The position numbers were made by a program, and so were the translations under genes. Below are positions 59,414 through 64,000 of a stretch of DNA of 64,000 bases, in pieces. Below the pieces are notes generated by a model. It made no database searches and had not been told where the DNA came from. It saw nothing but the letters and a program-made list of their open reading frames with translations. Origin of the DNA: Escherichia coli (lineage in GTDB: Bacteria; Pseudomonadota; Gammaproteobacteria; Enterobacterales; Enterobacteriaceae); assembly GCF_003790525.1 (NCBI RefSeq), contig NZ_CP033635.1. One strand, written 5' to 3'. The first letter of the stretch is position 1, and each line of letters begins with the position of its first letter.

Positions 59414-60829
59414 ATGAAAATCAAAACTCGCTTCGCGCCAAGCCCAACAGGCTATCTGCACGTTGGCGGCGCGCGTACTGCTCTTTACTCTTGGCTTTTT
59501 GCACGTAACCACGGCGGTGAGTTCGTGCTGCGTATTGAAGACACCGATCTTGAGCGTTCCACGCCGGAAGCTATCGAAGCCATTATGGATGGCATGAACT
59601 GGCTGAGCCTGGAGTGGGATGAAGGTCCGTACTACCAGACCAAACGTTTTGATCGCTACAATGCGGTGATCGATCAGATGCTGGAAGAGGGCACTGCTTA
59701 TAAATGCTATTGCTCTAAAGAGCGCCTGGAAGCGCTGCGCGAAGAGCAAATGGCGAAAGGTGAGAAGCCGCGTTATGACGGTCGCTGCCGCCACAGCCAT
59801 GAGCATCACGCTGATGATGAACCGTGTGTCGTGCGTTTTGCTAACCCGCAGGAAGGTTCTGTTGTTTTTGACGATCAGATCCGTGGTCCGATCGAATTCA
59901 GCAACCAGGAGCTGGATGATCTGATTATCCGTCGTACCGATGGTTCTCCAACCTATAACTTCTGTGTAGTGGTTGACGACTGGGATATGGAAATCACGCA
60001 CGTCATCCGTGGTGAAGACCATATCAACAACACGCCGCGCCAGATCAACATCCTGAAAGCGCTGAACGCGCCCGTACCGGTTTACGCGCACGTTTCTATG
60101 ATCAACGGTGATGACGGTAAAAAACTGTCCAAACGTCACGGGGCGGTCAGCGTAATGCAGTATCGTGATGACGGTTATTTGCCAGAAGCACTGCTGAACT
60201 ATCTGGTGCGTCTGGGCTGGTCCCACGGCGATCAGGAAATCTTCACTCGTGAAGAGATGATCAAATACTTCACTCTGAATGCCGTCAGCAAATCTGCCAG
60301 TGCGTTCAACACCGACAAGCTGCTGTGGCTAAACCATCACTACATTAACGCACTGCCGCCGGAGTATGTGGCTACCCACTTACAGTGGCACATCGAGCAG
60401 GAAAATATCGATACCCGTAACGGCCCGCAACTGGCTGATCTGGTAAAACTGCTGGGTGAACGCTGCAAAACGCTGAAAGAGATGGCACAGACTTGCCGTT
60501 ATTTCTACGAAGATTTTGCTGAGTTCGATGCCGACGCCGCGAAAAAACATCTGCGTCCGGTAGCGCGTCAGCCGCTGGAAGTGGTTCGTGACAAACTGGC
60601 CGCGATTACTGACTGGACCGCTGAAAACGTTCATCACGCTATTCAGGCGACGGCGGATGAGCTGGAAGTGGGTATGGGTAAAGTTGGTATGCCGCTGCGT
60701 GTCGCCGTTACCGGTGCGGGGCAGTCTCCGGCACTGGACGTTACCGTTCACGCGATCGGTAAGACCCGCAGTATCGAGCGTATCAACAAAGCGCTGGCTT
60801 TTATTGCGGAACGCGAAAACCAGCAGTAA
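59414..60829 (+). CDS. gltX: Glutamyl-tRNA synthetase
   Basis: 471-aa ORF ([31 protein letters not shown]) with HIGH-type and KMSKS (KLSKR) motifs. Confidence 0.95.
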
Positions 60830-60848
60830 TTAGCGCATAAAAGATAAA

Positions 60849-60880
60849 CGGCAGGAGAAATACCCCTGCCGTTTTTTATT
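60849..60880 (+). terminator. gltX rho-independent terminator
   Basis: Stem cggcagg / cctgccg followed by ttttttattt. Confidence 0.75.
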
Positions 60881-60949
60881 TATCCGGTGCGCCGTAAAAC
60901 CCCGTCCTTCAGGGCGGGGATATAAGGCGCGGTTTTCCACCTGACCAGG

Positions 60950-61363
60950 TGTTTGCTGTTGTTCAATGTATTGGCGGATGACGGATATTGGCGCACCTCC
61001 GCAGCTACTGGCAAAATAGCCAGGACTCCACAAAACGCCTTTGTAGTAATACCTGACTGCAATATCTGGTCGATCTCGTCGCAGTCACCTACCCGATACG
61101 CCTTTGAGGCTGTTTACCAGACTGGATATCGCCAGTTTGGGAGGATAGTTAATTAACAAATGGACGTGATCTGGTTCGCCATCCATTTCAACCAGTTCAG
61201 CTTCAAAATCAGCACATACATTTGAAAAGTAAGTGCGTAGTTTTTCTGTCGCGTCATGGTCAAAAATCTGGCGTCGGTATTTGGGACAAAGACCAGGTGA
61301 ACATGCATCAGGAAAACACAATGCCTTCCACGCCGGATATCGGTTTCTTTTTTCACAGACCAA
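60950..61363 (-). pseudogene. tnpA: IS200/IS605 tnpA (HuH Y1 transposase), frameshifted
   Basis: N-terminal part in frame of 61085-61363 (…CPKYRRQIF…HVHLLINYPP…LKGVSGR*); C-terminal part (LWSPGYFASSCGGAPISVIRQYIEQQ) in a different frame at about 60950-61033. Confidence 0.65.
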
Positions 61364-61378
61364 AATATAATTTGACCT

Positions 61379-62589
61379 GTGAAACGACTACAGGCATTTA
61401 AATTCCAGTTAAGACCCGGTGGTCAACAGGAGCATGAAATGAGGCGCTTCGCAGGCGCATGTCGTTTCGTTTTCAATCGTGCTCTGGCGCTTCAGAATGA
61501 GAATCATGAGGCCGGTAATAAATACATCCCTTACGGGAAAATGGCTTCCTGGCTGGTTGAGTGGAAAAACGCCACTGGAACGCAATGGCTTAAAGATTCT
61601 CCCTCACAGCCATTGCAACAGTCACTGAAAGACCTTGAGCGGGCTTACAAAAACTTCTTCCAGAAGCGGGCTGCTTTTCCCCGATTCAAAAAGCGGGGAC
61701 AGAATGATGCATTCCGCTACCCGCAGGGCGTTAAGCTCGATCAGGAAAACAGCCGTATTTTTCTGCCGAAACTGGGCTGGATGCGCTACCGGAACAGCCG
61801 TCAGGTCACGGGTGTTGTGAAAAATGTCACGGTCAGCCAGTCCTGCGGTAAGTGGTACATCAGTATTCAGACAGAAAGTGAAGTATCAACTCCGGTTCAC
61901 CCTTCAGCATCAATGGTCGGGCTGGATGCCGGCATGGCTGAACTTGCCACGCTGTCAGATGGGGCACAGTCTTTGAGCCTGTAAACAGTTTTCAGAAAAA
62001 CCAGAAGACGCTGGCGAGACTTCAGCGACAGTTAAGCCGCAAGGTCAAATTCAGCAATAACTGGAAGAAGCAGAAACGCAAAATACAGCGACTGCATTCC
62101 CGTATCGCAAATATCCGCAGGGACTACCTTCACAAAGTCACAACGACCGTCAGCAAAAACCACGCAATGATAGTCATTGAGGATTTGAAGGTCAGCAACA
62201 TGTCAAAGTCAGCAGCGGGTACGGTCAGCCAGCCGGGGCGCAATGTCCGGGCAAAATCAGGTTTAAACCGTTCGATACTGAATCAGGGCTGGTATGAAAT
62301 GCGCCGCCAGCTTGAGTACAAGCAGCTCTGGCGTGGCGGTCAGGTGCTTGCTGTTCCGCCAGCGTACACAAGCCAGCGTTGCGCGTGCTGTGGTCATACA
62401 GCGAAAGAAAATCGCCTGTCACAAAGTAAATTCAGATTCCAGGTATGTGGATATACAGCGAACGCCGATGTAAACGGCGCTCGTAACATTTTAGCGGCGG
62501 GGCACGCCGTTCTTGCCTGTGGAGAGATGGTGCAGTCAGGCCGCCCGTTGAAGCAGGAACCCACCGAAATGATTCAGGCGACAGCCTGA
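61379..62589 (+). pseudogene. tnpB: IS605-family tnpB (RuvC-like RNA-guided nuclease homologue), single frameshift
   Basis: Frame 1: 61379-61984 (…VGLDAGMAELATLSDGAQSLSL*); continues in -1 frame from 61981 to 62589 (VNSFQKNQKTLARLQRQL…IEDLKV…CACCGHT…[10 protein letters not shown]); shift at agc-ctg-taa, consistent with a 1-bp deletion. Confidence 0.7.
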
Positions 62590-62628
62590 ACGTAGCAGGG
62601 ATCCTCGTCCTTCAGGGCGTGGAGGATG

Positions 62629-63021
62629 TCAAGCTGATTCATCTATGTCGAGACGAGCAAGGAAATTACGAATTCCTTCGCGTGACAAAAATTGCGCAAC
62701 TTTTTCCCGCTCACTGTGAGTCATGTTGTCTATTGCGCTGATGATTTGCCGATAAGCAGGAGTGCGAATCCCCGGTGCGTATTCGGCAAGGGGTTCTTCG
62801 GCTTCCAGAAGCATCGGCGTGTTATGGAAGGCTGGCGTGTTCTGAATAAACTCGCAAACTTGCGTATCGACCAGAATAAGTCTGGCACGACCGCCTTTCA
62901 CGCCGGGAAATTTTTCCGTTTTCCAGCCTTTTTCTCTGATCCAACGGTTAACAGTTTGTTTAGCCACACCGAGGCATTCAGCCAGTTCTTCGGTGGTCAT
63001 TTTATTGCGTAATCTTTTCAT
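62629..63021 (-). CDS. yfeD: Small putative DNA-binding protein (DUF1323-like)
   Basis: 130-aa ORF (MKRLRNKMTTEELAECLGVAKQTVNRWIREKGW); paralogous to adjacent yfeC. Confidence 0.8.
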   Translation of the reverse strand: MKRLRNKMTTEELAECLGVAKQTVNRWIREKGWKTEKFPGVKGGRARLILVDTQVCEFIQNTPAFHNTPMLLEAEEPLAEYAPGIRTPAYRQIISAIDNMTHSEREKVAQFLSREGIRNFLARLDIDESA

Positions 63022-63022
63022 A

Positions 63023-63382
63023 TTATTTGCTATCGCGAATCCCTAAGCGTTGTAATAATCCGATAATCCCTTCCCGCAGAAGCAAGGATGTAAACTGTTT
63101 TTGTTCAACTGGCGTCATCTCTTTCGCCAGTGTCACCAGCAACACTTCAAGCGGCGCATCACCAGACAGGGCAGGCGTTTCTCCCTGACTTTCCGGACGT
63201 TCAGCATTGCGAATATATTCACGAACCTGTTCATTGACGTGAACCAGTCGGGCTTTGCCACCCTGGACGCCTGGTTTTGGTGACGTTGTCCAGCCTTCCT
63301 TGCGTACCCATTTATTAATGGTCTGGCGGCTATAGCCGGTCAGTCTGGCAAGTTCATCTGGCGTCATCCTCTCCTTGAACAT
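63023..63382 (-). CDS. yfeC: Small putative DNA-binding protein (DUF1323-like)
   Basis: 119-aa ORF (MFKERMTPDELARLTGYSRQTINKWVRKEGW). Confidence 0.8.
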   Translation of the reverse strand: MFKERMTPDELARLTGYSRQTINKWVRKEGWTTSPKPGVQGGKARLVHVNEQVREYIRNAERPESQGETPALSGDAPLEVLLVTLAKEMTPVEQKQFTSLLLREGIIGLLQRLGIRDSK

Positions 63383-63541
63383 AACAATTCCCTGAATGTA
63401 TGTGGGTCTATTAGTAGTTCATTTTATAACACCACTTTACAGGAAACCGTGACATGAATAACTACTGAATGCGAGCGGTTTTCCAAAATTGTTCATTTGC
63501 CTGATTTTTCAGCGATTGAAACTACACGTTGCAATTTGCCG

Positions 63542-63570
63542 TTGACACATTCGGGCGGAATTCATATGAT
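63542..63570 (+). promoter_or_regulatory. Sigma70 promoter of the tRNA-Ala operon
   Basis: TTGACA (63542-63547), 17-nt spacer, TATGAT (63565-63570), GC-rich discriminator; about 30 nt upstream of the tRNA. Confidence 0.65.
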
Positions 63571-63602
63571 GCCGCCCGTCAACTCGACAAGCTTTACGTG
63601 AC

Positions 63603-63678
<76 letters not shown>

Positions 63679-63717
63679 AATTTTGCACCCAGCAAAATTT
63701 GTACGTAAACGCATCGT

Positions 63718-63793
<76 letters not shown>

Positions 63794-63802
63794 AATTTCA
63801 AA

Positions 63803-63828
63803 CCCTCGCTGTAAAGCGGGGGTTTTTT
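63803..63828 (+). terminator. Rho-independent terminator of the tRNA-Ala operon
   Basis: Stem ccctcgc / gcggggg (one G-U pair) followed by tttttt. Confidence 0.7.
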
Positions 63829-64000
63829 GTCTCTGCTTTTTGCCGCTTTTGTAATACAGTCTACGTCCGGGTTAGCGGCGCCTGGTGAAAGCATCATTGG
63901 ATGAAAAATCGGCAACAGGCTGACCCCTGTTTGCTTCGCGATGCGAATAAACTTATTATTTGTGTGCCTGAAAACCCCGATCAGTGAGAGTAGTGTACTC

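Follow-up and report, generated by a model that had tools for sequence, protein, structure and literature searches.

The window analysed here, a stretch of 64,000 nucleotides from Escherichia coli, carries an IS609-type element of the IS200/IS605 family between gltX and yfeD. The element is 1749 bp long by empty-site comparison (60884–62632, plus strand) and consists of a left end, tnpA on the minus strand, tnpB on the plus strand and a right end. No second copy of the element was found in the window. The tnpA pseudogene, encoding a Y1/HUH transposase (60947–61371, minus strand), is described in RefSeq as frameshifted, with an internal stop and incomplete. The tnpB pseudogene, which derives from an insQ-type RNA-guided nuclease (61379–62589, plus strand), has 1211 bp against 1209 bp in intact copies and is listed in RefSeq as "RNA-guided endonuclease InsQ/TnpB family protein", pseudogene, "frameshifted". 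The locus is thus a decaying transposon, a known kind of feature that is already annotated as a pseudogene, and it has little consequence past correct annotation.

Ends, target site and predicted ωRNA

The element extends from 60884 (CCGGTGCG...) through 62632 (...GGATGTCAA). These bounds come from occupied and empty sites, as K-12 is empty at gltX-yfeD and strain SMS-3-5 is empty at ydcL-ydcO, and the alignment of hundreds of plasmid and viral copies ceases at the same position, 62632. At both sites TTTAT lies directly 5' of the element (60879–60883, plus strand, in the window, as target and transposon-adjacent motif), and the junctions are clean, without a target-site duplication. One published assay of IS609 TnpB used a target starting with TTAT (PMC12781874 supplement). 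A subterminal hairpin is found near the left end (60900–60920, plus strand; CCCCGTCC-TTCA-GGGCGGGG) and another near the right end (62603–62623, plus strand), where it also forms the last stem (helix 9) of the RNA scaffold described below. The two are a direct-repeat pair (family D1), 90% identical and in the same orientation, and there are no terminal inverted repeats, as is typical of IS200/IS605 ends. In the right-end hairpin, the T at 62605 gives a U-U mismatch; T is also present in the same-locus copies of EC571 and RM19259, while K-12 has A.

On the right side, the insertion rebuilt the last codon and the stop of yfeD (62629–63021, minus strand) from GCA TAA to GCT TGA, and the end of the YfeD protein is unaltered. 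Both characterised IS609 insertions occupy the stop-codon region of a convergent gene (62629–62636 at yfeD); in K-12, ydcO has gained one Tyr and takes its TGA from the end of the insertion sequence. The TAA within the reverse complement of TTTAT may bias insertions to gene 3' ends. On the left side, a terminator-like hairpin and T-run downstream of gltX (60846–60879) end exactly at the TTTAT target, so that the left end of the element abuts the terminator. Among relatives in viral contigs, three end in ...GTCAC instead of ...GTCAA and have the flank GCTGCCTCTTTAAT in common, probably reflecting one conserved prophage insertion site.

A conserved RNA structure is present over the 3' end of tnpB and the right end. 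The predicted ωRNA scaffold (62486–62632, plus strand) is delimited by a closing helix (62486–62491 with 62624–62629), measures ca. 147 nt and reaches to the right end of the element. Upstream of it, at 62458–62484, is another conserved hairpin. The initial annotation had placed a guide-RNA scaffold at about 62500–62630, and covariation now supports one close to this, at about 62486–62632. The alignment behind this result (A1) contains 17 non-identical 3' ends, mostly from viral contigs, ranging from near-identical to about 60% protein identity. RNAalifold on A1 gave 46 pairs, 13 of them with compensatory changes, and the conserved structure as a whole counts 14 covarying pairs. After one hairpin had been added by hand, 93.7% of the cells in the structure are paired; sliding the partners lowers this to 35–45%. 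Its covariation score is 0.28, slid partners give no more than 0.09, and none of 500 shuffles attains the observed score. The folding z-score is −2.3. Directly 3' of the right end, inside the 3' end of yfeD, lies the segment that would be expected to serve as the guide (GCTGATTCATCTATGT; 62633–62648, plus strand), if the mechanism of ISDra2 is applied to the element boundary. An Rfam scan of 60000–64000 (E<=1) returned no family at threshold on the scaffold, with two tRNA-Ala genes as the only hits to pass; a match to RAGATH-18 at 62516–62559 reached 25 bits, compared with a gathering score of 45, and was taken as chance. A promoter scan gave a match count no higher than in shuffled sequences.

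Coding regions and the lesions in tnpB

By homology and by its lesions, tnpA is a Y1 HUH homologue that is present but dead. It has an in-frame TGA at 61085–61087, common to K-12 and EC571, and a 1-bp deletion after 61284, common to relatives in AR13438, 2016C-3878 and TCM3e1. The uninterrupted tnpA of RM19259 matches NCBIfam transpos_IS200 (NF033573) with E=1.7e-40, covering profile positions 2–126 of 126. In every IS609 copy examined, the tnpA frame has no stop within the element and passes through the left-end hairpin into the flank (...TAHRI|flank; 60830–61371, minus strand, in the window), which makes the C-terminal tail of TnpA dependent on the site. This probably explains why PGAP labels all copies with "missing C-terminus". 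One otherwise identical allele, in CS5L, differs by six extra bases at scattered positions and by one 1-bp deletion, none of them outside the tnpA region (about 61240–61361); these look more like assembly errors than biology.

Judged by its domains and profile matches, tnpB is unmistakably a member of the TnpB family. It is 97.4% identical at the DNA level to K-12 insQ (IS609 transposase B), and 97–98% identical when the intact same-locus copies are included. The joined product was compared with TnpB families by profile, as the initial annotation had proposed, and it scores 383.8 bits (cut-off 100; E=1.1e-114) against NCBIfam guided_TnpB (NF040570). On the repaired translation, Pfam finds HTH_OrfB_IS605 (PF12323, residues 1–48), OrfB_IS605 (PF01385, 162–277) and Cas12f1-like_TNB (PF07282, 304–370), meaning that the HTH/WED-REC, RuvC and zinc-ribbon domains of TnpB are present in the expected order. 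With phmmer, the joined product matches the ISDra2 TnpB structures 8exa and 8h1j (E=3.6e-52). What the gene lacks is an uninterrupted ORF. A 2-bp insertion leads to a stop after codon 201, and tnpB is for this reason a pseudogene and not a functional TnpB member.

The GTG-started ORF of tnpB runs from 61379 to 61984 and encodes 201 aa, ending at a TAA (61982–61984, plus strand) that is the product of the frameshift; the frame displaced by −1 (equal to +2) is open from the junction up to the TGA at 62587–62589. The initial annotation had read this layout in the same way, and its view that one frame-shifting indel made tnpB non-functional is borne out. The indel itself was misidentified as a single 1-bp deletion. 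Alignment to three intact copies, K-12 insQ at ydcL-ydcO and EC571 and RM19259 at gltX-yfeD, leaves a 2-base gap at 61961–61962: where the intact copies have CTG TCA GAT GGC ACA GTC (LSDGTV), the window has GAT GGGG C ACA. The result is a GGGG run (61959–61962, plus strand) in place of GG, with the two extra G aligned at the last two positions. All three intact genes are 1209 bp long and encode 402 aa, in place of the approximately 404 aa suggested for the restored protein. Among 40 fetched loci that carry the motif, it reads GG in 35, GGGG in 5 and GGGGG in none. From these counts and from the length of the intact copies it follows that the lesion is a duplication of GG. One added base would restore the frame arithmetically, so a 1-bp deletion from an ancestral GGGGG, encoding a protein of 403–404 aa with an extra Gly, can be formulated; but since that ancestral state is missing from the 40 loci and every intact copy keeps GAT GGC ACA, it is extremely improbable.

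The frameshift cuts the protein after 194 native residues, past RuvC-I (D183) and ahead of RuvC-II (E267). The stop then follows within only 7 codons, and this short distance is one of two points in favour of reading GGGG as a site of programmed or tolerated slippage, either ribosomal (−1) or transcriptional, by which some full-length TnpB would still be made. The other is that further IS families, IS1 and IS3 among them, often use programmed frameshifting. However, the GGGG site has no slippery X XXY YYZ heptamer, and every intact copy and every distant relative examined has GG and an unbroken ORF. Any read-through product would still carry the cysteine loss described below, and alleles with GGGG gather further lesions. 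The chance that the slippage site raised in the initial annotation exists is therefore tiny. A split TnpB, made of the 201-aa fragment and a 140-aa ORF (62167–62589), was also considered and is unlikely; inspection by eye shows no Shine-Dalgarno sequence ahead of the ATG of that ORF, and the second part holds the cysteine loss.

The GG insertion is always linked to four substitutions at 61930, 61934, 61940 and 61945 (61930–61945, plus strand; V186M, K188E and two synonymous changes), which gives five changes inside 33 bp in all. Two of the four substitutions (within 61927–61936) convert ATGTCGGCGT into a perfect 10-bp palindrome, ATGCCGGCAT. A quasi-palindrome template switch was considered as the source of the cluster, but the two corrections run in opposite directions and one switch is insufficient. 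The cluster and the GG insertion may represent one complex mutational event or chance.

The initial annotation regarded the RuvC and zinc-finger motifs as otherwise intact, and this holds for the first of the two. The RuvC triad is kept, with D183 (61925–61927), E267 (62179–62181) and D363 (62467–62469) aligning with the ISDra2 motifs GVDVG, E-H-L and RDENAA. The CxxC...CxxC zinc finger is broken: C334, C337 and C356 are present, but codon 353 is TTC (62437–62439, plus strand) where intact copies have TGC, and the third zinc-finger cysteine is thereby lost (C353F). In the phmmer alignment, residue 353 pairs with the first Cys of the second CxxC in ISDra2 TnpB (tCpnCg vs rFqvCg). Ten residues, among them C351, are named as critical in a 2026 paper whose authors also purified an IS609 TnpB (PMC12781874). 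These residues map onto the window protein at an offset of +2, so that C351 in that numbering is C353 here. Nor is the rest of the gene unchanged, as 8 nonsynonymous and 2 synonymous changes are private to the window allele, compared with 13 and 21 in the intact copies (Fisher two-sided p=0.03), a contrast drawn from few sites with a mosaic history that is consistent with relaxed constraint on this tnpB. Careful alignment, named beforehand in the initial annotation as the check on a single-lesion gene, thus found additional inactivating lesions.

Alleles among E. coli genomes

Among 5426 complete E. coli genomes, 501 have an occupied gltX-yfeD site, and the stretch 60830–62640 is 100% identical in SMS-3-5 and 23 other complete genomes. 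The GGGG allele is found in 37 of the 5426, on two haplotypes. Thirty genomes match an 81-bp patch spanning GGGG without any difference, and seven more have it with 2 nearby mismatches. In these seven, the TCM3e1/Z226 group, the four SNPs and the GG insertion recur on another haplotype, distinct at dozens of further sites, and their tnpB has one more 1-bp deletion as well as an internal stop. Being present in 37 genomes on two haplotypes, GGGG is real and inherited; it is no sequencing error, and it cannot be shown to be recent. The initial annotation had offered both of these readings. A very recent origin is untenable given two haplotypes that each have further lesions. As for an artefact of sequencing or assembly, with tnpB intact in the cell, the extra bases do sit within a short run of G, a setting in which certain platforms get the length wrong. 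Against this, the 30 exact genomes were assembled independently and come from varied hosts and sources, the seven others repeat this GGGG in a clearly distinct haplotype background, the insertion is tied to four specific SNPs, and a run of 4 bases is below the length at which systematic homopolymer errors occur across platforms; the probability of an artefact is consequently close to nil.

An 81-mer containing C353F is exact in 71 records. These include the 2016C-3878 group, which lacks the GG insertion and has an internal stop of its own. The two lesions occur in each of the four possible combinations, with both in the window, GG only in the TCM3e1 group, C353F only in the 2016C-3878 group, and neither in most copies. 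The idea that C353F came before the GG insertion was set aside, because the TCM3e1 group has GG together with Cys353. Read from these allele combinations, the two lesions have been shuffled by recombination, and the combinations do not give their order. In AR13438, the intact tnpB at the same locus has exactly the SNPs of the K-12 ydcL-type copy (62367, 62387, 62409, 62412 and 62475) and Cys353 in its 3' third only (62281–62475). The pattern resembles gene conversion from one IS609 copy to another, which may have "repaired" the AR13438 allele.

The SMS-3-5 chromosome contains two further places that match tnpB. A synteny search for these copies found ydcL-ydcO, yedK and yoaG-yeaQ empty in SMS-3-5, and a region at about 12–40 kb that bears a copy in several other genomes is empty there as well. 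Compared with K-12, SMS-3-5 (NC_010498.1) has a large inversion of the terminus region, with the sampled stretches (K-12 ~1.1–2.0 Mb) in reverse order, and its ydcO is interrupted by IS4.

Given that tnpB is a multiply damaged pseudogene in a small set of strains, it is neither a candidate live TnpB system nor a case for resequencing. The locus is of modest use for studies of IS609-type TnpB in E. coli, for which it offers exact ends, a TTTAT target and a scaffold supported by covariation, as well as many occupied gltX-yfeD sites with alleles that decay in several independent ways.

Interpretation and relation to known systems

By far the most probable account, in our judgement, is that the window holds a fossil IS609-type element in which both genes are dead through ordinary neutral decay, with vertical inheritance and homologous recombination. 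The element inserted 3' of TTTAT between gltX and yfeD. The duplication of GG to GGGG disabled tnpB, C353F independently removed a zinc-finger ligand of TnpB, and tnpA has the in-frame TGA and the 1-bp deletion. These lesions would represent neutral decay of a mobile-element gene that the cell does not need, passed on by vertical descent and exchanged between E. coli strains by homologous recombination. If an intact IS609 works like ISDra2, TnpA would excise the element in single-stranded form and insert it 3' of TTTAT, and TnpB with its ωRNA would cut the rejoined donor site (TTTAT followed by the sequence from 62633 onward), after which recombinational repair would restore the element. A cycle of TnpA excision and insertion, TnpB-ωRNA cutting and repair is established in ISDra2 and related elements, and RNA-guided, TAM-dependent cleavage would be expected of an intact IS609 copy. 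Neither TnpA nor TnpB can be made from the window copy, so it is a fossil.

The 201-aa N-terminal fragment or the predicted ωRNA may retain some role. It is also conceivable, though unlikely, that with its protein genes dead the locus is still an RNA/DNA module that draws in trans on the TnpA and TnpB of sibling IS609 copies, and remains mobilisable and "guarded". In line with this, there is no window-private change in the hairpins of the left and right ends or in the scaffold region, the matches elsewhere in SMS-3-5 could be such siblings, and exchange between copies that resembles gene conversion is visible in AR13438. The siblings were not found at the locations searched in SMS-3-5, and a module of this kind supplements the main explanation and does not compete with it. 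A little less likely still is that the ends and the predicted ωRNA (guide GCUGAUUCAUCUAUGU, in the 3' end of yfeD) are used in trans, or that the transcript acts antisense on yfeD. If true, a protein-less fossil would still be retained or mobilised by other IS609 copies in the genome.

Returning to the fossil reading, the closest known system is IS609 itself (K-12 insQ/ydcM with a tnpA remnant; IS200/IS605, IS605-like). Besides the high identity of tnpB, the ends and subterminal hairpins of the two copies are identical, and both have the divergent layout of tnpA and tnpB, the TTTAT context and the in-frame TGA in tnpA. They differ in location (gltX-yfeD in the window, ydcL-ydcO in K-12) and in damage, as the window copy has the GG insertion and C353F in tnpB and an extra 1-bp deletion in tnpA. 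The TnpB-ωRNA complex of ISDra2 from Deinococcus radiodurans (PDB 8exa, 8h1j) has the same domain order and the same D-E-D RuvC triad, its CxxC...CxxC zinc finger is found in intact IS609 copies, and a structured RNA over the 3' end of the gene and the right end is predicted here too. The similarity in sequence is distant, and the motif is TTTAT/TTAT here in contrast to TTGAT in ISDra2. Unlike ISDra2 TnpB, the window TnpB cannot be assumed to be active, because it is truncated and lacks one zinc cysteine.

TldR-type regulators are nuclease-dead, exapted relatives of TnpB that are full-length, have mutated RuvC residues and sit among conserved non-transposon neighbours. The window locus resembles them in being a TnpB-derived locus that is kept without a working transposase. 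It differs from them in that its RuvC residues are intact while its ORF is broken, a state that would fit neutral decay.
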